From a virus, in IMG/VR virus record IMGVR_UViG_3300045988_170943, positions 64,001 to 128,000 of that record: a stretch of DNA of 64,000 nucleotides. The stretch is one strand, 5' to 3'. Below are positions 12,965 to 58,962 of the stretch, piece after piece; positions within the stretch are counted from its first letter, which is position 1, and each line of letters opens with the position of its first letter. The position numbers and the translations under genes were made by a program. The notes under the pieces were generated by a model. It was not told where the DNA came from. It saw nothing but the letters and a program-made list of their open reading frames with translations, and did no database searches.

Positions 12965-13372
12965 ATGAGCAAGACTGTCACTGAGATTGTTAAGGCCGTC
13001 GCTGAGAATGGACTGGATGCCACTTTCGGCACTACTAACGCCGCTATCGATAATGGCTGGTATGACTGGTTTTGTCAGGACCGCTCACTGAAGAACAGGT
13101 CAAAGAAGTTCATGACCATTCTCAATCGGCTTACTAATGGCGGCAAGGTCAGCCTGGATGGTGAGGTTACCTTCCTGAACAAGTACGCAGAGCATCTGTT
13201 CGATGTCATGATTCTAGAGTCCACTGAGGGCACCATTTTTGTCGAGAATGACCCTCAGGAACATGGGGCGCGTTGGGCTGTTAAGGTGAACGGAAACCAC
13301 CCCACTGAGGGGTTCCTGAAGTTCGACAGTGTTCATGGCCTTGTTGCGTGGCTGAACGAGCCCTGGGGCTAA
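12965..13372 (+). CDS. hypothetical protein
   Basis: The SD 'gaaggagacaac' precedes the ATG. Confidence 0.55.
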   Translation: MSKTVTEIVKAVAENGLDATFGTTNAAIDNGWYDWFCQDRSLKNRSKKFMTILNRLTNGGKVSLDGEVTFLNKYAEHLFDVMILESTEGTIFVENDPQEHGARWAVKVNGNHPTEGFLKFDSVHGLVAWLNEPWG

Positions 13373-13432
13373 CTCGCTCTTACGGAGAGGTAAGAGCGCA
13401 GTATCTCACCCCTTCCTTGCAGGGAAGCGTAT

Positions 13433-13477
13433 GCAGTGCCGTACAGTTGACTATATGAGTTGACTGTACGGCACTGC
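13433..13477. repeat. perfect 15-bp inverted repeat (gcagtgccgtacagt / actgtacggcactgc) with a 15-nt spacer
   Basis: Read directly from the sequence. It sits after the 12965 gene and has no T-run, so it could be a terminator or an operator. Confidence 0.5.
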
Positions 13478-13645
13478 TGTCGCTGATGTTGAGTTTCCCT
13501 GCTAGATTTGACGCATCGGAGGGCGGTGGGTACGAGTGTGGCCTATTTCACTAGAGTCAACATTGATCATGTCTCACGGGTGGTGCTATGCTCATACCAG
13601 ATGCCAAGAACAAGAGGTTGTTGGCCAATATTTGAAGGAGTCACA

Positions 13646-14155
13646 ATGTCCGCCACTATCAAGCCCGCCACCAAGTACATTACCTCCAATGAGGCAATCT
13701 GTGAGGAAAACGTGGTAGAGAAGGGTGACTGGGCTGACTTCCTTGAATCATCCATTAAGGGAATGCACGTGACCGATGTGTACGTGACTACCCGTAAGGC
13801 CGCCCACAATAAGTGCCCTCAGGGAATTGACTGTGATGACTCGAACGAGGGTGACTCTGCGGTAGTCATTGAGGGTCCCGTGAACCGTGTTGTTCTGCTT
13901 GGTCACTCTGCCCCCGATTTTGACAACGATGTCAAGTTGAATGTGCTCAGTTACGACAACTCCGACAAGAGGGTGAACAGTGTGTCCATTGAGGGCATCA
14001 ACACCTACTGGTTCACACAGGGCACTGAGGGCGGAGAGTACTACACCGTCAAGATCGGCCGCCACAATTCGCCTATTATCATTGAGGTCCTGACCTACTC
14101 CGACTCCCTCGGTGATGTGGGCGTGCCATACATTGTGGTCCAGGACGCCCGCTGA
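13646..14155 (+). CDS. hypothetical protein
   Basis: The SD 'gaaggagtcaca' precedes the ATG. Confidence 0.55.
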   Translation: MSATIKPATKYITSNEAICEENVVEKGDWADFLESSIKGMHVTDVYVTTRKAAHNKCPQGIDCDDSNEGDSAVVIEGPVNRVVLLGHSAPDFDNDVKLNVLSYDNSDKRVNSVSIEGINTYWFTQGTEGGEYYTVKIGRHNSPIIIEVLTYSDSLGDVGVPYIVVQDAR

Positions 14156-14170
14156 TAAGCCACTAACTGT

Positions 14171-14218
14171 CGCCCTGGCATGAGGTTCTACCGTTCATGC
14201 CAGGGCGGCTTTATTTAC
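14171..14218 (+). terminator. intrinsic terminator (13-bp stem + CTTTATTTACC)
   Basis: A 'cgccctggcatga...tcatgccagggcg' stem followed by a T-rich tail. Confidence 0.55.
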
Positions 14219-14254
14219 CGCTGTCAGAGTTCACGCAAAACATGACTGTGGCCC

Positions 14255-14302
14255 AGTTCACATGTTTACCAGTTGCGCATGTTCAAGGTCATGCCGTATG
14301 CT
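14255..14302 (+). promoter_or_regulatory. composite promoter motif AGTTCACAT-N8-GTTGCG-N18-TATGCT (plus an extra AGTTCAC half-site at 14228)
   Basis: Motif instance, with the downstream leader 'TATGCTTACACCATCAAAGG'. Confidence 0.4.
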
Positions 14303-14340
14303 TACACCATCAAAGGAAACAAACACAAAGGAGGATAGCC

Positions 14341-14751
14341 GTGAGCGCGCCCCTGGATCTCACCACCTACTTCACCAGCCCGAACACGGACAGTGGTGAG
14401 AAGTTCACTTATGAGAGTGAGATCGCTCTTGGATTAACTAGGGCCGCTGGGAAGTTCTCTTCCATCAGCGGTGAGGTTCTGACTGCTATCAAGCGTCTGG
14501 CTCACGAGGCTGGCAGTCACGTGACCATCCTCAACCCTCCGTCGTCTTTGCTTTCACGTGAGCACCCGCTCATTGTTGCTATTGGGTTCGAGGTGGTAGA
14601 GATTCACCTGGATTACGGACGCATCCAGGTGAACGTGCTCGAAGGCTGGCAGGACGTTCACGCCAACCTCGCTGGGTACACGACGTATGTCCAGTCCGAG
14701 GCGTGGAAGAGCCTGGGTGAGCACATGGCCCATATGGTCCACTGGCAGTAG
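14341..14751 (+). CDS. hypothetical protein
   Basis: The SD 'aaaggaggatagcc' precedes a GTG start. Confidence 0.5.
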   Translation: MSAPLDLTTYFTSPNTDSGEKFTYESEIALGLTRAAGKFSSISGEVLTAIKRLAHEAGSHVTILNPPSSLLSREHPLIVAIGFEVVEIHLDYGRIQVNVLEGWQDVHANLAGYTTYVQSEAWKSLGEHMAHMVHWQ

Positions 14752-14920
14752 CCATCACGGATGATACGACTGGGGTGGGCGCGTTTGGTATGAAGAACGT
14801 GCCCACCCCGGTTCTCCTTGTCTTCTTGCCACGCTCGCACTATCGTCAACACGCCTCTTAGTCTGATCAACCAGCAGCAGCACCCCATGAAGCACGCTAT
14901 CTGCCTGTAGAGTGAGACTC

Positions 14921-14967
14921 AGTTCACACATAGCGGGGTTGCAGTCTGCCGCGGCAACCTGTACGCT
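14921..14967 (+). promoter_or_regulatory. composite promoter motif AGTTCACAC-N8-GTTGCA-N17-TACGCT
   Basis: Motif instance. Confidence 0.4.
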
Positions 14968-15017
14968 TAAACCATCAGGAACACGACGGCGATTACCGCC
15001 AGAACGGAGACAGACAG

Positions 15018-15506
15018 ATGAGCATCAATCTTGTTGCCAACATGGTTATTGGCAAACGCGAGACTGTCAACATTCTCAACCCCGACGAGAATGAGAGTTG
15101 GGTTTCTTTCCGCCGCGCCGAGTTCAATTTCGACTCCGTGAGCGACTTTATTACCGTGGTTAAGAGGTTGTTCCTCATGGATCACCCTCACTCCGATCTT
15201 CTGATGAACGAGCGTGACAGGGAGGCGGTTCGTATCCCTACTTTCCTCCAGGTCGCTGAGGATCTTGGTGCGGAGGTTGAAGATGTTGAGCGACCTGGTG
15301 ACAGGGATTGTCTGTCTGGTGGGTTCGGGGACGATGCCGCGATCCTGTTTGGTGGAACCGTCTTCCCTGACGAGGACAACACCTACCTGGCTCTTTTCGG
15401 CAGTTCAGCATCCGGGGACCGGAAGTGGCCAGGCCACAAAGACGTGGTAGATGCTGTTAGGGGAGGCTTCGTCGCCCAGGAGGCCAAGAACCTGGGAATC
15501 AAGTAG
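15018..15506 (+). CDS. hypothetical acidic protein
   Basis: The SD 'acggagacagacag' precedes the ATG. Confidence 0.55.
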   Translation: MSINLVANMVIGKRETVNILNPDENESWVSFRRAEFNFDSVSDFITVVKRLFLMDHPHSDLLMNERDREAVRIPTFLQVAEDLGAEVEDVERPGDRDCLSGGFGDDAAILFGGTVFPDEDNTYLALFGSSASGDRKWPGHKDVVDAVRGGFVAQEAKNLGIK

Positions 15507-20033: not shown

Positions 20034-20210
20034 ATGAGCACCAACAGTGCCAAGACTCTCGTTCATATTTCTTACGCTCTGTTCGCCATGGCTACAGTGT
20101 TTGGGGTTGCCGCCATCGTTGGCGGTCACTCCAACGCTTTTATGACTGGGTTGCTGGGGCTGGGTGGGGCTCTGTTTTACGCCAAGGCCGAGAAGACCGC
20201 CAACGAGTAG
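20034..20210 (+). CDS. small membrane protein (58 aa)
   Basis: Not in the ORF track (under 60 aa). The sequence MSTNSAKTLVHISYALFAMATVFGVAAIVGG... is hydrophobic. It lies immediately upstream of the tnpB1 element. Confidence 0.4.
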   Translation: MSTNSAKTLVHISYALFAMATVFGVAAIVGGHSNAFMTGLLGLGGALFYAKAEKTANE

Positions 20211-20214
20211 TGTC

Positions 20215-21795
20215 TATTTATACCGTCAACCAGTCAAGTTCTTGAGAGGAGGCTCAACAGAAGTGCCTAGAACCATTGTGTCGCGCACGTATCCTCGTAC
20301 ACCGTATGCTGCGTTCAGCAAGACTGGTGAGCCCTTAGATCTTGATGTGGTACTGGCTGGTATCAGGAAGGATGCTGAACTGGTTGTCCACTATGCCCTA
20401 CAAGAGATGACTGAGCATAATCTCGCTCTGGTGACCTATTTTGACAGGTTCAAGCCTGCTGAGGCAGGGCGGAGAATGGGTCTGTTTCTCCCTAGCGAGG
20501 TGAAGAAGCGGTTCAAAAGTGGGGCCTCACGACTGGAGAAGATGTTCCAGGAGCAGGCCGTGACTGCCTTACGTTCCTGGGCCACCAGATCTGGGGTTGT
20601 CTCTGGGAACTACACTGGCTACGTCTCCGCTGGCTGGAAGAGAACAGTCGGGGACTCCAGGTCAAGGGCCCTACAGCCTCGGCTCGCCCTGTCTGCTACA
20701 GATAAGCAGTACAGGCGTATGAGTGTTACACCAGAACGTATTTCTCTTGACATGGTTGTTCAGGGCCAGTGGGTGACACTGCATTTTCCTGTTCCTCCAC
20801 AACTTTTAGAGCAGGGCTGTGAGCCAGGTGTTCCAGACATCTGGGTTGACAGTCAAGGTCGAGTGATGTTTGGTCTCCATGGCATGACAGATCCTGGCAG
20901 ACCGGAGTTCTCACCCAGGTACGTCATTGGCGTGGATGTGGGGGTCACTAACCCGGCCGCCTATGTTGTCTGGGACACTGAGAAGAGGGAAATTGTCGAG
21001 AAGTCTCTGCTTGATCAGAGGGCGCGGTCTCTGCATAACAAAATCAAACGCGGGGTTAGGCAAGTGTCCTCTCTACAGAGGAAGAACCGCCCCGAGGAGG
21101 CCGTGCCCCATAGGGCGCATCTATCGAATCGGCGTAAGGAACTGAGTATCCTTGTGGCTCAGGAGGTCGCGGACGCTGCCTGGAGGTATGGTAACGCCCT
21201 GGTGGTGTTTGAGGATCTGAGCCATATCAGGAACACCATGAGGTTTGGACGTTGGTTCCGTGGCGAGGTGCATAGAAGAACACGGGACATGGTTGAGGCT
21301 GACGGTGGACGAGTGATGAAGGTGAACGCGGCGTACACCTCGAAGAGGTGTCATGTCTGTCAGTCTGATCTGGACATGAGCGACTACAGTAGCCCTGTGT
21401 GTCACTCATGCAACATCACTCATCACCGGGACGTCAACGCGGCGGCGAATATTGCCCAGCGGGCCAACGTCAAGAAGGCTTGTCAGACCAGGATGCGGCA
21501 CACCACGAAGACGAAGCGTGTCCGCCGCTCCAAGTGCCGGATAAAACCACTGAAATATCCTGGTACGAAGAACAAACCAACACCCAAGGCGCCCCAGAAC
21601 CGACCTAAGACTCATGCTCACTCGTCTCTTCCAAAGATGGAGGTGAGTAAGGGGATGTGCCCCGCAGAGTCTAGGGTTTCTGCGGTGGACCACAGGGAGT
21701 GGTTTCAGACAACCAGCGGCACGACAGTTCTAAAGGAGAACCTATCTATTGGGAATACAATAGATGTGGTTTATCCTAAGGAATAGTCATACTCT
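20215..21795 (+). mobile_element. IS200/IS605-family tnpB-only (IS1341-like) element, copy 1 (about 1.58 kb)
   Basis: The boundaries come from the limits of nucleotide similarity to copy 2. The left end begins near 'ACCGT' about 40 nt upstream of the GTG start. The right end closes with 'CTAAGGAATAGTCATAC' 9 nt past the stop codon. There is no tnpA. Confidence 0.5.
20263..21786 (+). CDS. tnpB: TnpB-like RNA-guided endonuclease (RuvC-like + zinc finger), copy 1
   Basis: RuvC-I 'IGVDVGVTNPAAY', RuvC-II 'VVFEDLSHI', a zinc finger 'CHVCQ...CHSC' and RuvC-III 'HHRDVNAAANIAQRA'. The GTG start, with SD GAGAGGAGG, is identical in position and context to copy 2; the longer listed N-terminal extension was rejected. 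Confidence 0.8.
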   Translation: MPRTIVSRTYPRTPYAAFSKTGEPLDLDVVLAGIRKDAELVVHYALQEMTEHNLALVTYFDRFKPAEAGRRMGLFLPSEVKKRFKSGASRLEKMFQEQAVTALRSWATRSGVVSGNYTGYVSAGWKRTVGDSRSRALQPRLALSATDKQYRRMSVTPERISLDMVVQGQWVTLHFPVPPQLLEQGCEPGVPDIWVDSQGRVMFGLHGMTDPGRPEFSPRYVIGVDVGVTNPAAYVVWDTEKREIVEKSLLDQRARSLHNKIKRGVRQVSSLQRKNRPEEAVPHRAHLSNRRKELSILVAQEVADAAWRYGNALVVFEDLSHIRNTMRFGRWFRGEVHRRTRDMVEADGGRVMKVNAAYTSKRCHVCQSDLDMSDYSSPVCHSCNITHHRDVNAAANIAQRANVKKACQTRMRHTTKTKRVRRSKCRIKPLKYPGTKNKPTPKAPQNRPKTHAHSSLPKMEVSKGMCPAESRVSAVDHREWFQTTSGTTVLKENLSIGNTIDVVYPKE

Positions 21796-29442: not shown

Positions 29443-30093
29443 ATGACACGTGTAAACGTCCACAACACTACCGACTGGGATCGTGTTGACTGGAGTAACC
29501 CAGATCTGACTGAAGTGGTTGTTGACATTGATGACCCATATACGGTTATCGATGGCACCGGTAGATGTGACACGAACATTGGTATCGCGGTTGTTGTTGA
29601 TTCCAGGATTGGGGTGGTGAAGAACGTGGGCCATCTTGTTGTCAAACCGCACCCCATTGTCAGATTTCATAAAGATAATCTACGCATTAAAAACTGTACT
29701 GCCGTAAACGTTAATGATGGGGTGATTGTCACTAAAGTTACTGGTTCGAATCTTTTCATGGATGGCTCATCCCTGGTGCTTGTCGCAGAGAATTGCGATG
29801 TCATGTCCATGTCCGGTGATTCTCAAATCAACAAGGCCATTGATTCTGTGATTGACTCCATGATCGATAAGTCAACTATCTGTTTCGCAGATAAGAACAC
29901 CTGTATCAAGTTGATGGAAGATATGTCACAGGTGGATCGTCTTGAAGGGCACATCCTCATGCTTGACGGGTGCGCTTGTGTCGAGAAGATGACGAATGCA
30001 GCAATTGTTGAGACAGCCAGGTGCCGTACCATCGTTCGTAACGTAGAAGACGGTTCCAAGGTGGAGGTAGCGTATGACTATTCCTTAGAATGA
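29443..30093 (+). CDS. paralog family B protein (repetitive, beta-solenoid-like)
   Basis: Shares an N-terminal W..V.W motif, degenerate ~17-residue 'V.G.A.V..V' repeats and a C-terminal 'KVEVA' with the 32970 and 49163 ORFs. Its last 16 nt overlap the tnpB2 stop region. Confidence 0.5.
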   Translation: MTRVNVHNTTDWDRVDWSNPDLTEVVVDIDDPYTVIDGTGRCDTNIGIAVVVDSRIGVVKNVGHLVVKPHPIVRFHKDNLRIKNCTAVNVNDGVIVTKVTGSNLFMDGSSLVLVAENCDVMSMSGDSQINKAIDSVIDSMIDKSTICFADKNTCIKLMEDMSQVDRLEGHILMLDGCACVEKMTNAAIVETARCRTIVRNVEDGSKVEVAYDYSLE

Positions 30094-30222
30094 ACCCCAC
30101 CCACAGTATTAGCGGATAGGTTCGCCTTTGGAATTGTCGTGCCGCTGGTTGTCTGAAACCACACATTGTGGTCCACCGCAGAAACCCTAGTGTCTGCGGG
30201 GCACATCCCCTTACTCACCTCC
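30050..30222 (-). ncRNA. putative ωRNA scaffold of tnpB2, plus a candidate guide (about 30052..30071) lying inside the 3' end of the convergent 29443..30093 CDS
   Basis: This is the same hyperconserved block as at tnpB1 (reverse complement of 30072..30222). The sequence 3' of 'GTCATAC' is unrelated to copy 1. Confidence 0.45.
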
Positions 30223-31645
30223 CTAGAAGGTGTAACAGAGGGGTGAATCTTTGGCCTGTTCTGTGGGGCCTTAGGTGTTGGTTTGTTCTTCGTACCAGGA
30301 TGCTTGAGCGGCTTTGCATGGCACTTGGATCTTCTGATGCGCTTCGTCTTCGTGGCGTGCCGTCTCCTGGTCTGGCAGGCCTTGGCATGGTTGGCTCGCT
30401 GAGCAATATTCGCCGCAGCATTCAGGTCACGGTGATGGGTGATGTCGCATGAATGGCATACGGGATTACTGTAGTCGCTCATGTCCAGGGTAGCCTGACA
30501 CACATGACACCTTTTCGAGGTGAATGCCGCGTTCACTCTGAGGACCCTACCTCCGTCGGACTCAACCATGTCCCGAGTACGCCTGTGGACCTCGCCACGA
30601 AACCAGCGGCCGAACTTCATGGTGTTCTTGATGTGAGACAAGTCCTCAAAGGAGACGATGGCATTGTCATAACGCCAGGCTGCGTCCGCGATCTCCTGAG
30701 CAATGAGGATACTCAGTTCCTTACGACGATTCGACAAGTGAGCCCTGTGAGAAACCGCTTCCTCATCCTTGCCTTTTCTCTTCAAGGATGTTACTTGTAC
30801 CTGCCCGCGCTTGATCTTGTTGCTCAGTGATCTTGCTCTTTGATCGAGTAGAGATTGCTCAACAATCTCCTTATTCTTGGTGTCCCATACCACATAGGCG
30901 GCAGGGTTGGTAACTCCAACATCTACACCAATGATATAGCGCTCAGAGAACTTTGGTCGGCCAGGATCGGTTTTCCCATGAAAACCAAACATCACACGGT
31001 TGTTCTTGTCAACCCAGATGTCTGGGACACCAGGTTCACAACCATCCTCCAACAACTGCGGAGGCACCGGAAAATACAGTACCACCCACTGACCTTGAAC
31101 AATCACCTTCAACTCAATACGATCCGACTTAACAGTCATCTCTCTATATTGCCTATCGGCAGCAGAAAGAGATAATCTAGGTTGCAGAGATGATGGTTTT
31201 GAGTCCCTAACTGTCCTTTTCCAGCCGGTAGAGACATAACCACTATAGTTTTGGTTAACGGCCCCTGCTCTGGTAGCCCAGGACCTTAGATTGGTGACTA
31301 CTTGCTCTCTGAACATACGTTCAAATCTGGAACTACCGCTCCTGAACCGCTCCTTCACCTCAACTGGAAGTTTCAGGCCCATCATATATCCTGCACCTGA
31401 TGGTTTAAGTCTGTCGAAGTAGGTCACCAGCGCAAGGTTCTGCTCGGTCATCTCCCGCAAAGCATAGTGGGCGACCAGTTCAGCATCCGCTCTGATGCCG
31501 TCCAGGACTTCCTTGAGGTTTAGAGGATCGCCACTCTTGCTGAACGCAGCATACGGTGTGCGAGGGTACGTGCGAGACACAGCGCCTCTAGGCACTTCTG
31601 GTGAACCTCCCCTCAAGGACTTGACCGGCTAACGGTGTGTGTGAT
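30072..31645 (-). mobile_element. IS200/IS605-family tnpB-only element, copy 2
   Basis: About 75% nucleotide identity to copy 1 across the ORF and about 93% in the 3' RNA module. Left-end similarity runs up to about 31636. The flanks differ completely. The right end abuts and overlaps the family B gene. Confidence 0.5.
30078..31595 (-). CDS. tnpB: TnpB-like RNA-guided endonuclease, copy 2
   Basis: The same RuvC-I/II/III and zinc-finger motifs as copy 1. The GTG start is preceded by the SD GAGGGGAGG. Confidence 0.8.
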   Translation of the reverse strand: MPRGAVSRTYPRTPYAAFSKSGDPLNLKEVLDGIRADAELVAHYALREMTEQNLALVTYFDRLKPSGAGYMMGLKLPVEVKERFRSGSSRFERMFREQVVTNLRSWATRAGAVNQNYSGYVSTGWKRTVRDSKPSSLQPRLSLSAADRQYREMTVKSDRIELKVIVQGQWVVLYFPVPPQLLEDGCEPGVPDIWVDKNNRVMFGFHGKTDPGRPKFSERYIIGVDVGVTNPAAYVVWDTKNKEIVEQSLLDQRARSLSNKIKRGQVQVTSLKRKGKDEEAVSHRAHLSNRRKELSILIAQEIADAAWRYDNAIVSFEDLSHIKNTMKFGRWFRGEVHRRTRDMVESDGGRVLRVNAAFTSKRCHVCQATLDMSDYSNPVCHSCDITHHRDLNAAANIAQRANHAKACQTRRRHATKTKRIRRSKCHAKPLKHPGTKNKPTPKAPQNRPKIHPSVTPSREVSKGMCPADTRVSAVDHNVWFQTTSGTTIPKANLSANTVGGVHSKE

Positions 31646-36846: not shown

Positions 36847-37815
36847 ATGTGGATGCACTGGAGCGAGAAGAAGAAAAGTATGATGCCCTGTGCTGGGCCA
36901 GGCCGCTGCCAGTTCGGTGACGCCCCGCACGCGAGCACACAGGCAGAGTGTGACGCCATTGTCGCCAAGATGATGGGTAAAGAGGTGGGCGACCTTGGGG
37001 GAACCAGGAGACCCAGGAAAGACGCGGGTCTGAAGTTTGATACCACTACCCTGGAGGGGCAGCAGGCTCACGACGTCGCCGCCATGAAAGAGTACGTGGC
37101 CGCCAACAAGGCCCTGGATCGTGAAGAGTACTACCGGGGCCACGCGGGCTGGTTCTATGAAAGGGGCCTGATCCCTGGAGGTCAGAGAAATTGGCGGAAG
37201 ATGCCCACAAAGAAGATGGTCAGTGACCTCAGGGCTCTGCATGAGCAAGTGATCGCTGAAAGGGGTTATGACCGTAACGGATACGGTGATATGGCTGACA
37301 AGATGGAGGCCGCGCGGGTTGCTGTTGATGAGCACTACGAGCGGTACCGGAAACTTGACAGCCAGTATGCGGGGTGGTCGAGGTTCTTCCTCACCAACAA
37401 CACTAACGGTCACATTCATTCATCCATGGAGTGCTCTACCTGCAACCGCAATGGTAAGAGGACCCAGTTCGAGTGGCTACCTGAACTGAGCGGGCTGAAC
37501 GAGAAGCAAGCCATCCAGAAGCATGGGCCACGCCTATGCACCACGTGCTTCCCGGACGCGCCACTGGACTGGACCAACGGTGGTGAGGCAGAACCTAAGG
37601 GTAGGAAGAGGCAGGTCCCTGAGGGTGTGTGCCCAGGTTCCGGCAGCAGCGAGTACGACGAGATGACAATGAACGAGTATGAGGGGTACAGGTCGGTTCC
37701 TGGCGGCACAATGAAGGTAACGGACAGGTACGTTGACTGCCCTGAGTGCGGCAAGCAGTTCAAACTTACCGCTAAGGGTGTCATCCGTAAGCACAAGATC
37801 CCAAAGAAGAAATAA
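36847..37815 (+). CDS. Cys-rich (multiple zinc-finger-like) protein
   Basis: The SD 'caaggagccacct' precedes the ATG. Contains CxxC pairs: 'CSTCNRNG', 'CTTCFPD' and 'CPECGKQ'. The overlapping minus-strand ORF 36799..37419 was rejected. Confidence 0.55.
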   Translation: MWMHWSEKKKSMMPCAGPGRCQFGDAPHASTQAECDAIVAKMMGKEVGDLGGTRRPRKDAGLKFDTTTLEGQQAHDVAAMKEYVAANKALDREEYYRGHAGWFYERGLIPGGQRNWRKMPTKKMVSDLRALHEQVIAERGYDRNGYGDMADKMEAARVAVDEHYERYRKLDSQYAGWSRFFLTNNTNGHIHSSMECSTCNRNGKRTQFEWLPELSGLNEKQAIQKHGPRLCTTCFPDAPLDWTNGGEAEPKGRKRQVPEGVCPGSGSSEYDEMTMNEYEGYRSVPGGTMKVTDRYVDCPECGKQFKLTAKGVIRKHKIPKKK

Positions 37816-41929: not shown

Positions 41930-43132
41930 TCATTGTCTATGATACTGGTCACTTATTTCCAGTCGCCCAATGAAGTCGCTGTATGGCACTGGTCTTGGTG
42001 CGTCACCGTCGTTGTTGAACACAACCGGTTCTGTCTCGATAGTGCCGTCGGCGTGCATGCTTGCCAGGTTCTCTGCGCTGCGTGACCTGAACCGTGTCGT
42101 GTCCTCTGGTGTGTTGCTCTGGTTGACTGATGCAGGGAGAATACGGCCACCGTTCCCCTCCCCAGATACCGTGTACTTGTCCATGCCTCTCCTGTACCTG
42201 GAGGTGGCTCTTTTAGTGGATGTTTCTGGTGTGATGTCAACGAACACTGCCCTCAGGCTGTAGCCGCCCTTCTTGAGCCTACCAACCCTGGAGTCCATGG
42301 AGGAGCGTTTCGACATTGTGCCGTCCAGGATGATGTTTTTCTTCTCCCTGATAGCCCGGTCCATGATGATGCTTGAGATATGTGAGGCTTCATCGTGGGC
42401 AAGTGTGGAGCACTCCATAGGGGTGAGCCCACGCAAGGTCGGGATCATGCCCCTCTCGGCCATGATCTCTTTGATGTCGTCAGGGTTGACAGTGATGTAC
42501 TTATCGGTGTCGATGTTGAGGTACCTGGTCAGGACAGTGGTCTTGCCCGCACCACCCATACCACCTGATATGATCGCTCTCCCTTCACAGGGCGTGTCTT
42601 CGTGCTGCTTGAATACGTCATCTATGATCTGCTGCTGTAGTTTGCGGCGTTCTGGCGTGTAGACGGGCCCAGCGGATATCTTCGTGGAGTACGTGTCACT
42701 GGTCTTCAGTCCGTCACGTATCGCCTGAGAGAGGGCTCTTTCTGCGTACTGATGCCTCAGGGACATATCTAGCCCAGAGATGGCCTGGTGGCTGTCGCAT
42801 GCTTCCTGGAGTACTCGCTCGCACTCACGTCCTTGTTCCACCAAGGACATGCTCTCCCACTGCTTCCCTCGCTCTGGGCTGTTGTCTCCGGCCCCAACAG
42901 GTTTCTGTGTCGCTTTCCTCCCCTTGGAGGAGGCTGAAGCGAAGAGATCCTTACCCATGTACTCTGCCTTGATGGTGTCGATCTTCTGTTGCGCCTCCTG
43001 TGGGGTGGATGCGTACACATGGGGCTCACCATCTTTGGTCCTTGGGCACTGACGGAATTCAGCATTACACTCAACGGCTACCCCATCACTACTGCGAGCA
43101 TGCCATTTCTTCTTATTTCTGTGTCCAGTCAC
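41930..43132 (-). CDS. P-loop kinase (zeta-toxin / polynucleotide-kinase-like)
   Basis: Walker A 'GGMGGAGKTT' followed by 'NIILDGTMSKR', a zeta-toxin/AAA_33-like arrangement. The N-terminal region is basic. Confidence 0.5.
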   Translation of the reverse strand: MTGHRNKKKWHARSSDGVAVECNAEFRQCPRTKDGEPHVYASTPQEAQQKIDTIKAEYMGKDLFASASSKGRKATQKPVGAGDNSPERGKQWESMSLVEQGRECERVLQEACDSHQAISGLDMSLRHQYAERALSQAIRDGLKTSDTYSTKISAGPVYTPERRKLQQQIIDDVFKQHEDTPCEGRAIISGGMGGAGKTTVLTRYLNIDTDKYITVNPDDIKEIMAERGMIPTLRGLTPMECSTLAHDEASHISSIIMDRAIREKKNIILDGTMSKRSSMDSRVGRLKKGGYSLRAVFVDITPETSTKRATSRYRRGMDKYTVSGEGNGGRILPASVNQSNTPEDTTRFRSRSAENLASMHADGTIETEPVVFNNDGDAPRPVPYSDFIGRLEISDQYHRQ

Positions 43133-44503: not shown

Positions 44504-44551
44504 GTTTCACCTATGCTGGGGTTGCTACCTTCCCTCCTGTGGTGCTAGAGT
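44504..44551 (+). promoter_or_regulatory. composite promoter motif GTTTCACC-N8-GGTTGCT-N18-TAGAGT followed by GAAGTCATCACG
   Basis: Motif instance heading the NAD operon. Confidence 0.4.
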
Positions 44552-44606
44552 GAAGTCATCACGCCGAGGGTAGAAGGGTCTGAGGCGCAAAGCGAAAGGA
44601 AGACAA

Positions 44607-44972
44607 ATGGACACTGAGGCTAAGGTTCGCTCGATCACGAAGGCCATCGAGTCTGCTCTTGTGGGCCAGACGATTGACACATTTTCTGTTGGAGAGCAGG
44701 TCGTGGAGGATGGTAGTGTCCACTCCTCTGGTGTTATCTCCTTTGGCGAGGATGCTCATATCATCCAGGTTTCTGGGGCTCGTCTTGATGTCAAGGCCAC
44801 CCCTCTGGCTGGGGCTACCGTGACCAAGGTGGATTACGTTACGATGCCCATGGACGGGTACCTGGGCTGGAGCATCAAGGGCTACCAGGGGGATGGTCGA
44901 GCCACCGATATGGTGTTCGAGATTTGGAACGCTGGTGGCGAGGATGTTCAGTATGCTGTGTCGATGATCTGA
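44607..44972 (+). CDS. hypothetical protein
   Basis: The SD 'gaaaggaagacaa' precedes the ATG. Confidence 0.55.
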   Translation: MDTEAKVRSITKAIESALVGQTIDTFSVGEQVVEDGSVHSSGVISFGEDAHIIQVSGARLDVKATPLAGATVTKVDYVTMPMDGYLGWSIKGYQGDGRATDMVFEIWNAGGEDVQYAVSMI

Positions 44973-45016
44973 CTCCTCCTCTTGAGAGTGTAGACTCCTG
45001 GAATGCACCAGGGGTC

Positions 45017-45060
45017 TACACTTCTTTGTTGGGGGTTTCGCGGCCTCTTTTTGTGTGGTA
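45017..45060 (+). terminator. hairpin + T-rich tract (possible attenuator/terminator)
   Basis: Stem 'gtgtagactcctgg...ccaggggtctacac' (2 mismatches), followed by 'ttctttgttgggggtttcgcggcctcttttt'. Confidence 0.35.
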
Positions 45061-45085
45061 GAATAGGACAATAGTAAAGGTCAAA

Positions 45086-46090
45086 GTGACTTTTACTGTG
45101 GGTCACCTTACCGTCCAAGAACACCAAGGAAGAAGCAGCGTGAAGTACTCCATACTCAGTGTAGTTACGGGAACCAGCAAGTGCACTGTCCCCTTCAAGC
45201 CATCTGACGCCACTAAGCACATCCCGCAAGGGTGTCAGTTCTGTGTCTCTGGGCAGTACGCGAACGACAGTAACCGTGTAGCACCAGAAGTGAACTGGAG
45301 GAACCTGAGGAAAGCGATCCAGTTGGCTCGCAATGGTGGGGTTGACACTGTGGTTCTTACTGGTAGGGGTGAGCCAACCTACTTCCCTGACCAGATCACT
45401 GACTACCTGAAGGTGCTTGGTCCTGAGTTTCCGCTCATCGAGTTGCAGACCAACGGGGTTCTGCTGGCCGGGGCGAGAAATGAAGACTACCTGAAGGAGT
45501 GGTACGACCTGGGTCTTACTACCATCCTCATCAGCGTAGTCAGTAACGACCCGGAAATCCTCAGGCAGAACTATATGCCGCTTTCCAGGTCATACTACGA
45601 CCTGCCAGCGCTCATCGCTAAACTCAGGGGTATCGGGTACACGGTTAGGCTGGCTTGTGTCTGCACCAAGGCGTGGATGTCCACCAGAGAGCAGGTGGCT
45701 GACTTCCTGAAGTTCGCCAAGGACAACAAGGTCGGCCAGGTCACCTTACGTCCACTGAACGACGAGTACCGGAGGGAGACCGCCCACACCTGGATCCAGA
45801 AGCACAAGATGACTGACAAGGACAAGGATAGTATCAGGGACTACCTGGATGAGGTGGGTCATAAGTTGCGGGACCTTCCAGCAATCGGGTCCATGTACGA
45901 TGTTGACGGGGTGGGTGTCCTCATGTCTCTGCCATTGACGAAGTACACGCACCATAACACTGAGGACACGGCCAGGAATCTCATCTTCTTCCCCGACGGA
46001 ACAACACGGTACGACTGGGAGTGGGAAGGGTCGGTACTTCTCCAGGGGGACAATCGTCCACTCACCTTGCAGGACGGATCCTACTGGTGA
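45086..46090 (+). CDS. radical SAM-like protein with a non-canonical Cys motif
   Basis: Carries 'GRGEP' and 'ELQTNGVLL' (the radical SAM GGEP/TNG signatures). It has 'GCQFC' (Cx2C); the first Cys of CX3CX2C is replaced by Ile, but there is a Cys 19 residues upstream. It is paralogous to the 63756 ORF (CPIGCEFC). An alternative start is the GTG at 45140 with SD 'aaggaag'. Confidence 0.45.
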   Translation: MTFTVGHLTVQEHQGRSSVKYSILSVVTGTSKCTVPFKPSDATKHIPQGCQFCVSGQYANDSNRVAPEVNWRNLRKAIQLARNGGVDTVVLTGRGEPTYFPDQITDYLKVLGPEFPLIELQTNGVLLAGARNEDYLKEWYDLGLTTILISVVSNDPEILRQNYMPLSRSYYDLPALIAKLRGIGYTVRLACVCTKAWMSTREQVADFLKFAKDNKVGQVTLRPLNDEYRRETAHTWIQKHKMTDKDKDSIRDYLDEVGHKLRDLPAIGSMYDVDGVGVLMSLPLTKYTHHNTEDTARNLIFFPDGTTRYDWEWEGSVLLQGDNRPLTLQDGSYW

Positions 46091-46197
46091 GGTAATGGGC
46101 GGCACATTCTGAGAGGTGTCCACGGAACGATAGGATTCGGCCGCCTTGCACTGAGCATAAAGAAGAACGACAAGAATACATTGTGAAGGAATAGAGC

Positions 46198-47172
46198 ATG
46201 AGAATTGACTTGAAAGATGTGCTAGACCTGGATGAAGACAGCAGGGCCAAACTAGAGGAGTACAGGAGGAAGCGTGCGTTCGCCCCTGCCGCCTATGTTG
46301 AGGCTAAGACGGCAGCACTTGGCGACTATTGCAAGAACAATGACATTGACTCGCTTACCGTCCTGATCTCTGGTGGTATTGACAGTGCTGTCGTGGCTGG
46401 GATCGCCAAGGAAGTCTCCAACAGGTACGGTACTGGGGTTCACATGGTCACCATCCCTGCAACCAACAGCCGGGGGGTGACCAGGCAGGATGAGACCGTG
46501 GTACTGGCTCAAGAACTGGCTGACAACCTTGGTGAGACCCTTGATGTTCTTCCCTTTGATGGGGTTGTTGATGAGGCTGTTAGCCTGTGTGACCTGGAGG
46601 ATAGCCAGTGGGGGACGGGTCAGGCCGTCTCCTACCTGAGGACAGCGGTGGCTTACACCTATGTGACCAAGTGCTGGAGCGTGGGCGACAAGACCCTCTT
46701 GGTGGGGACAACCAACATGGATGAGGGGGCATACATTGGTTTCTTCGGCAAGGCCAGCGACGGCATGGTTGACATCCAGCCCATCAGCGACCTGCACAAG
46801 AGCGAAGTGTACCAGGTCGCCAACTACCTAGAGATCCCCGCATCTATCATCCAGGCTACACCTCAGGGGGACATGTACCATGGTGGTAAGGATGAGCAGA
46901 TTTTCGGGTGCACCTATGACTGTGTTGAGTTGTTCTACGCGACCCATATTGGCAGGTACGTGGATTCTCCTGTGAGTGAGCAGTGGAAACGAGTTGTGGA
47001 CAACATTGAGGATCTTCACCAGTACAACACACACAAGTACCTTGGTGGTTCACCTGCCGTCCACATGGACGTGATGCCATATGCGGGCACTTTTGGGTCG
47101 TGGTCCTACCAGAACATTGTAGAGTCTAGGAACATTCTTTCGTCTCACCTGACAAGCAAACAGGCACTATGA
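46198..47172 (+). CDS. nadE: NAD+ synthetase (NadE-like PP-loop amidotransferase)
   Basis: PP-loop 'ISGGIDS'. NadE signature 'GTTNMDEGAYIGFFGKASDGMVDIQPISDLHKSEVYQVANYLEIP', compared with 'GTDN.SE...GYFTKYGDG..D..PI.DL.K..V' in known NadE enzymes. Confidence 0.6.
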   Translation: MRIDLKDVLDLDEDSRAKLEEYRRKRAFAPAAYVEAKTAALGDYCKNNDIDSLTVLISGGIDSAVVAGIAKEVSNRYGTGVHMVTIPATNSRGVTRQDETVVLAQELADNLGETLDVLPFDGVVDEAVSLCDLEDSQWGTGQAVSYLRTAVAYTYVTKCWSVGDKTLLVGTTNMDEGAYIGFFGKASDGMVDIQPISDLHKSEVYQVANYLEIPASIIQATPQGDMYHGGKDEQIFGCTYDCVELFYATHIGRYVDSPVSEQWKRVVDNIEDLHQYNTHKYLGGSPAVHMDVMPYAGTFGSWSYQNIVESRNILSSHLTSKQAL

Positions 47173-48569
47173 CAACGGGAGAGAAGGACTCACTGGGAGT
47201 ACCTGTTGCTCTGAGTGACCCAATGTTTCAGGCGTTCGCGGATACTCACCCGAGCAAGGATCTGGTTCGTTATGGGTACTACGATGACGGTGTGACCTCA
47301 CCGGACTGGGGACCTGCTACTACCCCCATCCCTGTGGGTGCTGTGTGGGCTTGTGGGGTCTCTGAGCGGCCTGCTGTGCTGGTGATGACTGGTGCCATGG
47401 ATCCGATGCACGACGGCCACGCTGAGGCCCTGGAGATAGCCAGGAGAAGGTTGGAGGGGCTGGGGGTCCAGATTGTTCACACTCACGTCATACCAGATAG
47501 TCATGTGTACGCGAGAATGAAGCGGCCTATGGGGGCTGGGAGCGATGAGGAGCGGGCCGCCAGTGTCAGGTCTTTGGGTTACGTGTGCGATGAGGACTGC
47601 ATGAGGTACCCTGGGAGACCGAACTACACGAGCATCCTCCTGCATGTCCAGCACAAGTGGCAGCAGCACGGTGTGCACCCAGTCGTATTCAACGTGGTTG
47701 GTTCAGACAACGCCCTGTTCGCTGAAGTGGCAGCAGCATACGATCCGGCCGGTTTCGGTACCGTTGTTGTGGAGACAGGCCACCAAGAAAAACCCCCCGT
47801 ACAGGAGGACGCTGGCCGGAACATCCTAGTATGCGACAGAGAAGGGCGAAAGTATGCGTCCTTGTCGTCAACCACTGTGAGAAGCGGTAACCACAGTAGT
47901 GATTTGCCTGTCATGTATATTAAAGACGACCTCGACTACTACACCACCAACAGGAAGTGCCATGACGAACTCATTAACGCACTAGAGGGCATGTTCACCT
48001 CATACGGGTACCAGGTGAAGGTCGGCCACTACCGGACACAAGTCAAAAAACTGGTCAAACAGACAGCATCCAAGCACTCCCAGGAAATAGAGAATGGTGC
48101 GATCACAGTATCCTTAGATCGACACATCCCAGCACAGGTCAGGTTCCCCATACACCGACTATTCCAGTCAGACACCCTACAGAAAATGGGGTACCTCCCA
48201 GACAGGCACCTTCAAGTACATCCAGGACAGAAGTTCATCCTGCTGGACGACGACATGGACACTGGCAACGGGATGAGATTCGTGAAACACATCATCAACA
48301 CCCAAGGTGGAGAAACCATCGGTGTTGAAACCATCTACCAGGACCCAGGGCGCGAGTTCGACGTTCTGGACGCTAGCGACGTCACCACTATTGACGGCAC
48401 AGGGCTCGTAGTCCAGTCATCTGACCTCACCATGAGCAGGATCCCCTACCTGCACACGTTCCTTGACCTGCAACGATTCTCCAGCGTGCCAGACCGTCAG
48501 AAAGAAGCGTTCACTCACCAGGTCACAAGCATTCTGAAGAGGCACAAGATCGGCACATATGAGAGGTAG
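47169..48569 (+). CDS. bifunctional nucleotidyltransferase (NMNAT-like HxGH) + type I phosphoribosyltransferase / PRPP-synthetase-like domain
   Basis: N-terminal 'VMTGAMDPMHDGH' matches the (T/H)xGH cytidylyltransferase/NMNAT motif. C-terminal 'KFILLDDDMDTGNGM' matches the PRPP-binding motif of type I PRTases/PRS. The start overlaps the nadE stop (ATGA), indicating translational coupling. Confidence 0.5.
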   Translation: MTTGEKDSLGVPVALSDPMFQAFADTHPSKDLVRYGYYDDGVTSPDWGPATTPIPVGAVWACGVSERPAVLVMTGAMDPMHDGHAEALEIARRRLEGLGVQIVHTHVIPDSHVYARMKRPMGAGSDEERAASVRSLGYVCDEDCMRYPGRPNYTSILLHVQHKWQQHGVHPVVFNVVGSDNALFAEVAAAYDPAGFGTVVVETGHQEKPPVQEDAGRNILVCDREGRKYASLSSTTVRSGNHSSDLPVMYIKDDLDYYTTNRKCHDELINALEGMFTSYGYQVKVGHYRTQVKKLVKQTASKHSQEIENGAITVSLDRHIPAQVRFPIHRLFQSDTLQKMGYLPDRHLQVHPGQKFILLDDDMDTGNGMRFVKHIINTQGGETIGVETIYQDPGREFDVLDASDVTTIDGTGLVVQSSDLTMSRIPYLHTFLDLQRFSSVPDRQKEAFTHQVTSILKRHKIGTYER

Positions 48570-48583
48570 AGGAGACAGAGAAA

Positions 48584-48627
48584 CTGGGTGGTGGGCCCAT
48601 CATTTCAGATTGAGTCCACCACCCAGT
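48584..48627. terminator. bidirectional terminator hairpin (11-bp stem ctgggtggtgg/ccaccacccag)
   Basis: Marks the end of the NAD operon and sits at a convergent junction with the 48641..48982 (-) gene. Confidence 0.5.
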
Positions 48628-48640
48628 TCATATCATCTAG

Positions 48641-48982
48641 TCACCACCCGTAGTCGATATGACCAGCGTCCTCCCGCGACACGCCGAACCGGGCCGTGAG
48701 ACGGTCCTCGGTGTTCTGGTAGATCGCCTCCTCGCTCGGATCCCCGTCATCTGGAGTGAAGGACGCGCTGTCCAGCCCCACCAGGTTCGGGTAGATGTCG
48801 CTCAGGGCGGCCACCTCTCCATCCTCGTCCTCCACCATGATGGTGCACTCCCACGTCGCTCCCTCTCCACAGTTTCCGTCCTGAGGGGTGTCGGTGAATG
48901 CGGGGCCTGACCACTTCAGGTAGAACGGCACCTCCTTCAACGAGAAGTTGCCTGTCATGGTCTGGAAGATGCTTGACATCAT
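48641..48982 (-). CDS. hypothetical acidic protein
   Basis: 113 aa, rich in Asp/Glu. Confidence 0.45.
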   Translation of the reverse strand: MMSSIFQTMTGNFSLKEVPFYLKWSGPAFTDTPQDGNCGEGATWECTIMVEDEDGEVAALSDIYPNLVGLDSASFTPDDGDPSEEAIYQNTEDRLTARFGVSREDAGHIDYGW

Positions 48983-57249: not shown

Positions 57250-57700
57250 GGCTCAGTACTTCAGGCCGAAGATGCGTTTTCGGTCATCCTTACGGAACAT
57301 CTTAGGCCGATGGAACCCGAACTTGTAAACCTCAGCACCAGTGTCGTTGGTGGCTGTGATAACACCGTCAGACAGGATGTTGTATGCTCGCTCCGCCCCA
57401 GTGAGACCCGAGATGTTGACACTCGCTGACTAGGTTGGAGATCCCCTAGAATCTAGGGTTTCTCTCACCATCATCAGCGTCGCCTCGGTTTTTATTTCCG
57501 AGGTACCGGTGTGCCCCTGGATTCTACTCAGGGCAGTGACCGGTTTCGACTGCCGCGTAACAGCCGAACTTCGCATTTCCTTTCTCTGACGAAGCAGAGA
57601 ACGCATTCTCTCTCGTGTTCGAGATGAAGGAGATGCCGCACGCAGAGCAATCTCTCTGGATGCTGAGACATCCCGGTTCAACTCAAAACCACAGGTAGTG
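57250..57700 (-). ncRNA. candidate ωRNA region of TnpB3 (structured; overlaps the low-complexity C-terminal read-through of the ORF)
   Basis: The ORF tail after RuvC-III is S/R/T-rich low complexity. Palindromes 'ccctagaatctaggg' and 'cctcgg-tttttattt-ccgagg' lie in the 180-nt gap before the next gene. Confidence 0.25.
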
Positions 57701-58962
57701 CAGGTGCCAACTCGGGTAGATGTGTTGTTTCTGGTTCTATCTCCGCAGCGAGAACAGGTTCTAGAGGTGTCTTTAGCACTCACCTTGGTTACTTTAAGGC
57801 CGTAGCGCTTAGCCGTATTCTCAATGCGACTCTGAATCTCCGCATGAGGCCAACGACCTCCCTGAGCATCCAGCCAGGACAGGTTCTCTAAAGAAACGTG
57901 AGCGTCGTTCCGATCTGCGATCTCTACTACCTGGCTGGCGATGCACTGACTGATCTCGCGCTTGATACGAGTGGCCTTAGCACTGACTCGCCTGGCTTCT
58001 TCTCTGAGAACTTGGGCGTGCTGATCTCGATTGTGCTTCTCGCAGAGGTTCGCTCGCTCGTACAGATGAGCGGCTAGATCGCGGCGTTTCTGTTCCTTCT
58101 TAACTAAGGCTCCGAGTCGTCTCTTATAGTTGGCGTGATATGGGGCAGACCTGTGCTTACTCTTAGGATCGATGACTGTAGCGACGAACGGCTCGACCTT
58201 ACCCAGATCAACACCCGTGATTATCTTGGTCTGGCTGGCATCTATTTCGTGCTCAATAGTGATGTCGAAGACGACCTGTCCCTTGTTGTTCAGGCGGATA
58301 GTTGGACGACAGATCTTACCTTCACTGAATCTCTCGCTGTTCTCTGGTAGCCTGAGATAGAGTCTGGTGAGACCATAAGTAGGCGTCTTAACCTGAACAG
58401 TGACACTTAGAGGATCGTTGTCATCTCTTGATGCTTTGGGCGCGAAGTGAGTGTCACAGACCGCCAGGTTCAGTTTAGCGCTCACGCCTGGTAGAGACGC
58501 TTTCCTTTCGCCCTTGATGTGATAACGTCTCAGGTGAGAGCAGACCATGCCACTGGTTGGTTGCGGGGCATCAGGATAGGTGTTCTTGTAATGAGATAGT
58601 ATCTGGTCCGGTTTTGTCGTGCTCGGGTGAGTACTCATTACTTGGAACAGGCCAACACTCATGGCGTACAGTTCCAGAGCACTCACTACGTTTGAGACCA
58701 GCATCTCGTTCATATTGTGCTTCTGAAACGAGAAGCCGTAGCGACTCAGCCTCTTCCTGCCCCAGGAGTTCAGAGAACCAGTCGGCCTGTCACCTTGCAG
58801 AGCCTTGATCGCTAAATCATGAAACTCACGGCTGGCAAGCACCTCTCGTTCTGACTCGGCCATCCAGGCGACCATCTGAGCCAGATCGCGTTCAACCTGC
58901 TCCACGTCAACCCCGCCGTCAGTGGTGAACCTGTGCCTGGTTACTGCGTCGTAGTACTTCAC
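57430..58962 (-). CDS. tnpB: TnpB-like RuvC/zinc-finger nuclease, distinct family (copy 3)
   Basis: RuvC-I 'ITGVDLGKVEPFVATV', RuvC-II 'VSLENLSWL', a zinc finger 'CSRCG...CTTCG' and RuvC-III 'NRDVSASREIALRA'. The GTG start is preceded by the SD AAGGAGG. The functional C-terminus probably ends before the listed stop. Confidence 0.7.
   Translation of the reverse strand: MKYYDAVTRHRFTTDGGVDVEQVERDLAQMVAWMAESEREVLASREFHDLAIKALQGDRPTGSLNSWGRKRLSRYGFSFQKHNMNEMLVSNVVSALELYAMSVGLFQVMSTHPSTTKPDQILSHYKNTYPDAPQPTSGMVCSHLRRYHIKGERKASLPGVSAKLNLAVCDTHFAPKASRDDNDPLSVTVQVKTPTYGLTRLYLRLPENSERFSEGKICRPTIRLNNKGQVVFDITIEHEIDASQTKIITGVDLGKVEPFVATVIDPKSKHRSAPYHANYKRRLGALVKKEQKRRDLAAHLYERANLCEKHNRDQHAQVLREEARRVSAKATRIKREISQCIASQVVEIADRNDAHVSLENLSWLDAQGGRWPHAEIQSRIENTAKRYGLKVTKVSAKDTSRTCSRCGDRTRNNTSTRVGTCTTCGFELNRDVSASREIALRAASPSSRTRERMRSLLRQRKEMRSSAVTRQSKPVTALSRIQGHTGTSEIKTEATLMMVRETLDSRGSPT

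Follow-up and report, generated by a model that had tools for sequence, protein, structure and literature searches.

A predicted pyridine-nucleotide module of a huge gut phage combines a radical-SAM enzyme, a NadE paralogue and a nucleotidyltransferase-phosphoribosyltransferase fusion

Depletion of nicotinamide adenine dinucleotide (NAD+) is a major strategy of bacteria against phages, and three phage pathways that rebuild it are known. NARP1 consists of Adps, which resembles PRPP synthetase, and the NAMPT-like Namat, NARP2 of a type II Nampt and Nmnat, and NARP3 of the transporter PnuC and a NadR-like bifunctional enzyme (PMC13464706). Gut "NAD-jumbo phages" with clustered pncB-nadD-nadE genes of the Preiss-Handler route, and with complete NAD pathways by annotation, have also been described (Li et al. 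2024, Microbiome, PMC11662467); that study mentions neither a radical S-adenosylmethionine (radical-SAM) partner nor a 2-oxoglutarate (2OG)-dependent one, nor a fusion containing a type-I phosphoribosyltransferase (PRT). The operon presented here occupies about positions 45056 to 48628 of a 64,000-nt stretch of the IMG/VR record IMGVR_UViG_3300045988_170943 (the window, in whose numbering all coordinates of this operon are given). It quite probably encodes a pyridine-nucleotide module. On balance we read it, with more reserve, as an NAD+ synthesis module that follows the deamidated route and includes an additional oxidative reaction, the substrates and the end product being those we infer from the enzymes encoded. 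The operon consists of three genes, the third of which encodes two domains:

45140 to 46090, plus strand: radical-SAM enzyme (PF04055), 316 aa, with an alternative GTG start at 45086
46198 to 47172, plus strand: NadE*, a module-specific PP-loop amidating enzyme of the NAD-synthetase family (PF02540, TIGR00552), 324 aa
47169 to 48569, plus strand: fusion protein, 466 aa, its start overlapping the stop of NadE*
47364 to 47903, plus strand: NadD/NMNAT-like HxGH nucleotidyltransferase domain of the fusion (residues ~66-245), with the motifs TGAMDPMHDGH and SSTTVR
47910 to 48503, plus strand: type-I PRT-like domain of the fusion (residues ~248-445), with the phosphoribosyl pyrophosphate (PRPP) loop ILLDDDMDTGNG

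The module resembles the three NARP pathways in being phage-encoded and in its expected end product NAD+, and it differs from them in proceeding through a carboxylate that needs amidation and in including an oxidase. An NMNAT-like domain is shared with NARP2 and an NMNAT-type adenylyltransferase with NARP3. The operon proteins gave no match to Pribosyl_synth or NAPRTase/NAMPT and a local NAMPT HMM detected nothing in the window, which sets the module apart from NARP1; the Nampt of NARP2 was found neither in the operon nor in the window, and searches of the window with local hidden Markov models (HMMs) found neither the PnuC nor the NadR of NARP3. An initial annotation of this DNA had stated that the gene combination is unlike NARP1 and NARP2, and the profile and HMM searches, in which no Adps, Namat or Nampt was detected, bear this out. 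With the Preiss-Handler clusters of gut jumbo phages (PMC11662467) the module has in common the carrier, a huge gut phage, the clustering of NAD genes and a deamidated route that ends in a NadE-family enzyme. These clusters encode a type-II PncB, whereas the window has none and instead a type-I PRT-like domain fused to the adenylyltransferase; the NadE* paralogue and the obligatory radical-SAM enzyme are further differences. The module would work like a pncB-nadD-nadE cluster, yet by composition it is not a member of that group. A third relative is the enzyme 3fiu from Francisella, an NMN synthetase that, according to PMC3376133, which cites Sorci et al. 2009, amidates nicotinate mononucleotide (NaMN) before adenylylation in a route with NadM. 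The same order of steps is possible in the window module and 3fiu is the best match of NadE*, at modest identity; the Francisella tularensis route has neither a fused PRT nor an oxidase partner, unlike the window module. Full-text literature searches returned no paper on the trio of genes or on radical-SAM enzymes with NAD genes as neighbours, and nothing relevant under "NARP4". What is new are the enzymes used and the conserved oxidase; that huge phages make NAD+ has already been published.

NadE* carries its SGGIDS P-loop at nt 46369 to 46386. It matches PF02540 with E = 4.9e-29 and TIGR00552 with 101.7 bits (cutoff 63.65), and hence belongs to the NadE family, as the initial annotation had it. 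Its scores lie below the equivalog cutoffs of the canonical NH3-dependent NadE (PRK13980, 111 versus 255 bits; PRK00768, 59.9 versus 250). The protein has a single domain without a glutaminase domain (Pfam), and its best match in the PDB is the Francisella NadE 3fiu (E = 1.3e-20). With the NadE* proteins of modules of both the radical-SAM type and the 2OG type described below it shares 36-40% identity (e-57 to e-71), and with canonical NadE it reaches only e-9 to e-18. NadE* belongs to a separate, module-specific subfamily and is a distinct paralogue of canonical NadE. Other PP-loop identities were rejected: QueC (E = 0.035; 14-15 bits versus cutoffs of 22 and 150, in the latter case 15.1 versus 150.3), GMP synthase (guaA_Cterm, 18.8 bits versus 338.75), LarE (18.4 bits versus 150) and MnmA (negligible score).

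The fusion protein was modelled with AlphaFold2 (AF2) at a predicted local distance difference test (pLDDT) score of 81.7. It has only 27 close homologues; the family obtained by profile search comprises 875 representative clusters (50% identity) at E <= 1e-3, to which a second profile search of a set of 5.8 billion proteins added nothing. For the nucleotidyltransferase domain the top 13 Foldseek matches in the PDB are NMNAT, NaMNAT or NadD structures, all with probability 1.0 and led by 9rpm, 1nup and 1kku, in agreement with its earlier designation as NMNAT/NadD-like. PPAT and FAD synthetase were rejected as identities of this HxGH domain, the Foldseek matches being NMNAT-type and not PPAT or FMNAT. 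A placement of the PP-loop protein with QueC/ExsB or GMP synthase together with a placement of the HxGH domain with PPAT or FAD synthetase had been set beforehand as evidence against a NAD+ pathway; NadE profiles and NMNAT folds were found instead. The C-terminal domain matches, by profile against the PDB, the APRT 5zgo (E = 2.3e-5) as well as OPRT and HPRT, and by Foldseek the APRT 4trb (probability 0.99). Fold and loop, the latter represented by ILLDDDMDTGNG, are those of a type-I PRT. The first interpretation of this PRPP-binding domain was correct in the type-I assignment and wrong in counting PRPP synthetase among its closest relatives; profile and fold point to APRT and OPRT, and an identity as an Adps-like PRPP synthetase was rejected for lack of any match. 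Across 141 diverse members of the fusion family the motifs GxxxPxHxGH, SSTxxR and DDDxxTGxT are conserved at 89-100%, with residues G75, P79, H81, G83, H84, S233, S234 and R238 of the nucleotidyltransferase at 90-100% and D360, D361, D362 and G366 of the PRPP loop at 91-100%. Because of this conservation of catalytic motifs both domains are probably active. All peptides that had been quoted for the operon (SGGIDS, GFFGKASDGMVDIQPISDLHKSEV, GAMDPMHDGH and ILLDDDMDTGNGM) were found in the translations, and the ORF coordinates confirmed the translational coupling of the last two genes, the stop of the NadE* gene and the start of the fusion gene overlapping by 4 nt (ATGA).

The radical-SAM gene most likely starts with the GTG at 45140, since this start is used by public gene calls and the alignments of homologues begin there. 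Its product scores 40.6 bits with PF04055 (cutoff 29.5), and the cysteines C15, C32 and C35 of the predicted cluster site are invariant across 20 aligned sequences, so that the designation as radical-SAM-like holds. In the phage clade of the window the cysteines are arranged as Cx16CxxC, because of a clade-specific insertion of 13 residues, whereas the bacterial orthologues have the canonical CxxxCxxC. The AF2 model (pLDDT 83) is nearest in fold to MoaA, viperin and BlsE. An identity as MoaA (GTP 3',8-cyclase) was rejected, with 30.7 bits for TIGR02666 versus a cutoff of 284, and a second conserved cysteine triad, as of a C-terminal cluster, is absent from the 20-sequence alignment. In both respects the protein differs from enzymes of the MoaA/viperin type, and also in setting: these serve molybdopterin synthesis or the production of antiviral nucleotides, while the genomic context of the window protein is NAD metabolism.

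More than 600 homologues of the radical-SAM protein exist, and its profile was used to fetch 80 genome loci for comparison. At identities of at least 47% (gut Clostridia, Bacilli, Melainabacteria, Elusimicrobia) the order radical SAM, NadE*, fusion is found in 31 of 32 loci, the single exception ending at a contig edge. The trio is also present in the same order on 11 IMG/VR phage contigs with at least three genomic contexts and on contigs of bacterial metagenome-assembled genomes with ordinary chromosomal neighbours. The bacterial third gene can be aligned over both domains of the window fusion, and in bacteria there is a 4-nt overlap between the radical-SAM gene and that of NadE*. The radical-SAM gene, once regarded as an unexpected passenger, is instead the most conserved member of the module.

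In gut Clostridia and Bacilli (loci L003, L009 and L011-L037) the trio lies within a longer conserved operon that begins ~1 kb before the radical-SAM gene and reaches to 7 kb beyond it. Its order is a Lys/Orn-decarboxylase-like pyridoxal phosphate (PLP) enzyme, radical SAM, NadE*, the nucleotidyltransferase/PRT protein (often fused to a GNAT acetyltransferase), a second radical-SAM/SPASM protein, a ~617-aa protein with a weak match to APH kinases, and ~105-aa and ~253-aa proteins without matches. This longer operon could be a complete anaerobic pathway that feeds the trio. A PLP enzyme stands beside the radical-SAM gene in 26 of the 32 loci (Lys/Orn-decarboxylase-like) and in 15 of 41 remoter loci (HisC/CobD-like); homologues of the PLP enzyme, of c7, c10 and c13 and of ADP-ribosylglycohydrolase (ARH) were sought in the phage loci and none was found. 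One phage group (L098-L105) encodes directly 3' of the trio a CHAP peptidoglycan hydrolase like streptococcal PcsB (8.7e-42; positions 11560 to 12432, plus strand, in L100), and this PcsB/CHAP-type lysin points to Gram-positive hosts for the group. In a 263-kb relative (L092/L096) a 218-aa ORF without family match (8405 to 9061, plus strand) separates the radical-SAM gene from NadE*.

The link of the radical-SAM family to NAD metabolism is seen most directly in the 41 remoter loci (34-42% identity; DPANN archaea, bacteria of the candidate phyla radiation (CPR), Planctomycetota and others), of which 31 have NAD genes at most 8 kb from the radical-SAM gene. The neighbours are NrtR (26 loci), NAPRTase and NadE (24 each), a PncA-type isochorismatase (23), NAD kinase (21), NMNAT (13), NadA (11), ARH (8, in DPANN), PnuC and NadR (4 each). 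In Elusimicrobia the trio directly follows NAMPT, NadE and NrtR. The viral locus L114 (IMG/VR UViG 3300037067_015211, 212 kb, positions 8001 to 12304) contains consecutively the radical-SAM gene, a 126-aa ORF, NAPRTase, NadE, NMNAT and a PncA-type nicotinamidase, predicted to constitute a complete deamidated route from nicotinamide to NAD+ together with the radical-SAM gene. By this pairing of the radical-SAM gene with PncB, NadE, NMNAT and PncA, L114 joins the Preiss-Handler clusters to the window type. In L114 the two domains of the fusion are replaced by exactly PncB and NMNAT. That loci lacking the fusion have these two enzymes instead is the principal reason to suppose that the fusion would perform their tasks. 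Of the NAD+ module as initially annotated there remain the domain calls and the connection with NAD metabolism, now strengthened by the conserved trio and by the occurrence of the radical-SAM family in NAD regulons; the oddity of the radical-SAM protein, an Adps-like PRT and the membership of an upstream 121-aa ORF were given up.

Modules of a second type have a 2OG-Fe(II) oxygenase in the place of the radical-SAM enzyme. In two proteins, P0294 (1143 aa) and P0276 (1191 aa), a single chain comprises NadE*, a 2OG-Fe(II) oxygenase and the nucleotidyltransferase and PRT-like domains; locus L115 encodes a NadE*-2OG fusion adjoining the nucleotidyltransferase/PRT protein, and the module of L116 consists of NadE*, an ARH, two 2OG oxygenases and the fusion. 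Among cultured phages, Xanthomonas phages X1 and BUDD and Variovorax phage V45v66 have adjacent genes for a fusion-like protein, a 2OG oxygenase and NadE*, and Acinetobacter phage ME3 has a split version in which the PRT half stands alone beside NadE. In the database records the products bear no annotation other than hypothetical protein, 2OG-Fe(II) oxygenase and NAD synthase. The NadE* proteins of the window and of X1 are 34% identical (6e-34). The nucleotidyltransferase/PRT-like proteins of the cultured phages, which are shorter (371-381 aa), match the family HMM with 2e-21 and 1e-15, and the PRT half of ME3 with 3e-24; the profile of the 2OG oxygenase gave weak matches to prolyl-4-hydroxylases (P4H) only. 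The modules of X1, BUDD, V45v66 and ME3 hence resemble that of the window in a homologous NadE*, a homologous nucleotidyltransferase/PRT-like protein and an oxidase between or beside them, and differ in having a P4H/PhyH-like 2OG-Fe(II) oxygenase where the window has a radical-SAM enzyme. The two oxidases thus hold the same slot in one module, whose NadE* proteins are homologous in both types. Such an exchange would follow the usual pattern of O2-independent and O2-dependent enzymes with the same task.

Several genes of ADP-ribose or NAD metabolism lie in or near these aerobic modules. L116 contains a separate ARH gene (3460 to 4212, plus strand) inside the module on a phage-like contig, and in L118/L119 an ARH fused to a PhyH-type 2OG oxygenase (605 aa; 13245 to 15062, plus strand) is encoded close to the four-domain protein; together they hint at a connection between ADP-ribose chemistry and the oxidase. 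Phage X1 has a pair of NMNAT and NAMPT ~2 kb from its trio, and phage ME3 a macro-domain gene near NadE.

In the route that we propose, the C-terminal type-I PRT-like domain would combine a carboxylated base, most likely nicotinate, with PRPP to a pyridine mononucleotide (NaMN) and in this way stand in for the type-II PncB. The N-terminal NadD/NMNAT-like domain would transfer AMP from ATP, and NadE* would convert the carboxylate into the amide with ATP, at the mononucleotide or the dinucleotide level, so that NAD+ is formed. Adenylylation and amidation may take place in either order, since the nearest solved relative of NadE* is the Francisella NMN synthetase. The radical-SAM enzyme would catalyze an O2-independent C-H-activating or oxidative step tightly coupled to NadE*, a step for which aerobes would employ the P4H/PhyH-like 2OG-Fe(II) oxygenase; through the NadE*-2OG fusions and the 4-nt gene overlaps the oxidase is tied most tightly to NadE*. 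For the phage, the benefit would be an increased or replenished NAD+ pool in the course of infection, for instance when NAD+ is destroyed by host defences, and such a role in counter-defence is plausible.

A number of observations weigh against this route. Nicotinate, nicotinamide and quinolinate PRTs are, to our knowledge, all of type II, and a type-I nicotinate PRT would be unprecedented. The Pfam score of the PRT domain (21.6) is below the gathering threshold of 26.3, and position 368, the final threonine of the PRPP loop in 89% of the family, is a glycine in the window protein. The CTP_transf_like score of the nucleotidyltransferase domain is likewise below threshold (17.8 versus 21), so that fold and motifs are the basis for placing it among the NMN/NaMN adenylyltransferases. 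An oxidase is not required in a plain Preiss-Handler route, which leaves the obligatory radical-SAM or 2OG partner unexplained. The bacterial loci with the trio also contain a housekeeping NadE beside NadE*, a hint that the latter may differ in its substrate or nitrogen donor, and in the 64-kb window local HMMs detected no PncA or other NAD gene beyond the operon. Finally, Synechococcus phage S-SSM7 (L094, 3450 to 4211) has a NadE-family gene in a sugar-nucleotide cluster, between a methyltransferase gene and UDP-glucose dehydrogenase/glycosyltransferase genes; its location suggests a homologue that amidates a sugar acid unrelated to NAD, and advises caution with the label "NAD synthetase" in phages.

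The same observations have to be weighed under other explanations. The module could yield a modified pyridine dinucleotide, i.e. a NAD analogue, or another carboxamide nucleotide, with the oxidase and NadE* acting on a non-standard base or dinucleotide. NadE* and the fusion are indeed divergent paralogues co-inherited with the oxidase, the housekeeping NadE is present in the same loci, the operon of gut Firmicutes adds GNAT, kinase-like and second radical-SAM genes in the manner of a biosynthetic cluster, and MoaA, viperin and BlsE, the nearest folds of the radical-SAM protein, modify nucleotides. We nevertheless consider a NAD analogue unlikely, as radical-SAM orthologues also stand beside canonical PncA, PncB, NMNAT and NadE (in L114 and in the NrtR-containing clusters of DPANN and CPR), surroundings in which unnatural intermediates would be out of place, and the phage operon is devoid of resistance or export genes. 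A refinement of the NAD+ synthesis model, in which the product is still NAD+, would make the oxidase and NadE* an alternative amidation couple that releases ammonia from an amine or cleaves a ligated amino acid to the amide. The direct NadE*-2OG fusions, the 4-nt overlap of the radical-SAM and NadE* genes in bacteria, the PLP enzymes beside the radical-SAM gene (decarboxylase-type in 26/32 and HisC/CobD-type in 15/41 loci) and the missing glutaminase domain of NadE* would all fit such a couple. It is an improbable arrangement all the same: the idea is purely inferential, each amide formed would consume one SAM, a PLP enzyme is missing from the phage loci, and some DPANN clusters pair the radical-SAM gene with a two-domain NadE (560-680 aa, domains judged by length) that would need no nitrogen supplier.

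Recycling of ADP-ribose (ADPR), the other product of NADases and the task of NARP1, would have the oxidase and the PRT-like domain process ADPR to nicotinate adenine dinucleotide or NAD. ARH genes do occur in modules and clusters (L116, eight DPANN loci and the ARH-PhyH fusion of L118/L119), a macro-domain gene lies near the NadE of ME3, and NrtR, a regulator that senses ADPR, is a frequent neighbour of the radical-SAM gene. On the other side, neither an Adps-like PRPP-synthetase fold nor a Namat/NAMPT-like protein was found in the operon or the window, the phage trio is without ARH, and no chemically obvious path leads from an oxidised ADPR to a pyridine nucleotide, which makes recycling quite improbable. 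A deazaguanine (QueC/QueE) pathway or that of another cofactor (PPAT, FAD synthetase) is hardly tenable and already contradicted. The Cx16CxxC spacing recalls some QueE enzymes, a PP-loop is present and one bacterial homologue gave a weak FAD_syn match (1.5e-4), but the bacterial radical-SAM orthologues have the plain CxxxCxxC, QueC scores 14-15 bits (cutoffs 22 and 150) where NadE scores 101.7, the folds are those of NMNAT and not PPAT or FMNAT, and the conserved neighbours are all NAD genes, without FolE, QueD or TGT. Returning to NAD+ synthesis, we hold it tentatively possible that the trio represents an unrecognised, widespread pyridine-nucleotide pathway, in which the oxidase performs a real step towards NAD+ (the generation of the carboxylate from a non-vitamin precursor, or a new way of amide formation) and which in phages would constitute a fourth kind of NAD+ reconstitution, directed against immunity that depletes NAD+.

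The interval that had first been annotated as a promoter-to-terminator operon, 44504 to 48627, contains four ORFs on the plus strand (44607 to 44972; 45086 or 45140 to 46090; 46198 to 47172; 47169 to 48569). Its boundaries are defined by the following features:

44607 to 44972, plus strand: upstream ORF of 121 aa, outside the operon
44986 to 45023, plus strand: terminator-like hairpin (16-bp stem, T-rich tail) that ends the 121-aa ORF and marks the 5' boundary of the module
45056 to 45064, plus strand: possible, weak extended -10 element TGGTAGAAT of the operon, read from the sequence
48582 to 48628, no strand assigned: hairpin between convergent genes, recognized by its folding energy

The 3' end stands as annotated: the hairpin at ~48582 to 48628 (-32.3 kcal/mol, z = -5.3; 0 of 200 shuffles fold equally well) separates the operon from the convergent gene at 48641 to 48982 and is likely a bidirectional terminator. 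The 5' boundary and the promoter at 44504 had to be abandoned, as a sigma-70 promoter scan found no sigma-70-like site at that position and the 121-aa ORF has a hairpin of its own (-40.3 kcal/mol, z = -4.7). The start of the operon was moved to ~45056 because this ORF, for which profile searches gave no family match, is terminated by that hairpin and does not adjoin the trio in an 87%-identical relative or in remoter ones. The element TGGTAGAAT, just 3' of the upstream hairpin, may serve as extended -10 of the operon; motifs of this kind number two in the window versus 3.3 expected by chance, and the motif TGNTAGART, common to the upstream regions of both genes, is not enriched in the window. 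Upstream of the phage operon and of eight bacterial counterparts, Rfam scans detected no riboswitch, a tRNA being the sole match.

The best interpretation of the element is a huge phage from the gut with a genome of about 420 kb. The exact operon proteins are also present on metagenomic contigs of 385-420 kb, and across the operon a viral contig of 394 kb from IMG/VR shows 87-94% identity; queried with the operon and the fusion protein, deposited phage genomes returned no match at the DNA or protein level. The window is rich in small ORFs without known function and contains no tRNAs. PADLOC v2 assigned none of eight proteins in and around the operon to a defence system, and local HMMs for NAPRT, PncA, NMNAT, NAMPT, NAD kinase, Nudix/NrtR, ARH, NadR, PnuC and NadA found nothing further in the window. 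Its other recognizable genes are:

4926 to 5717, minus strand: RNA-ligase-like protein (phrog_14301, 8.5e-17)
20164 to 21786, plus strand; 30078 to 31616, minus strand; 57430 to 58962, minus strand: three TnpB/Cas12f-like ORFs of 510-540 aa (phrog_506, PF07282 on the public gene call)
36847 to 37815, plus strand: member of the phrog_2433 family (1.6e-37)
41930 to 43132, minus strand: 400-aa protein that has a Zeta-toxin/AAA_33 kinase domain (E = 9e-18) and also resembles part of the phage "minor head protein" family phrog_16619, encoded 2 kb upstream of the operon on the opposite strand

To the three known phage pathways for rebuilding NAD+ the module would add another with different enzymes. 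If the proposed route is true, it contains an unprecedented type-I phosphoribosyltransferase for a pyridine base and an always-present oxidase that standard NAD biochemistry does not call for. The module ranges over gut Firmicutes, Elusimicrobia, DPANN archaea, CPR bacteria and several phage lineages, and because of this wide distribution a missing step in the NAD metabolism of uncultured anaerobes may be involved. The aerobic versions in cultured Xanthomonas, Variovorax and Acinetobacter phages make the question tractable without anaerobic enzymology.

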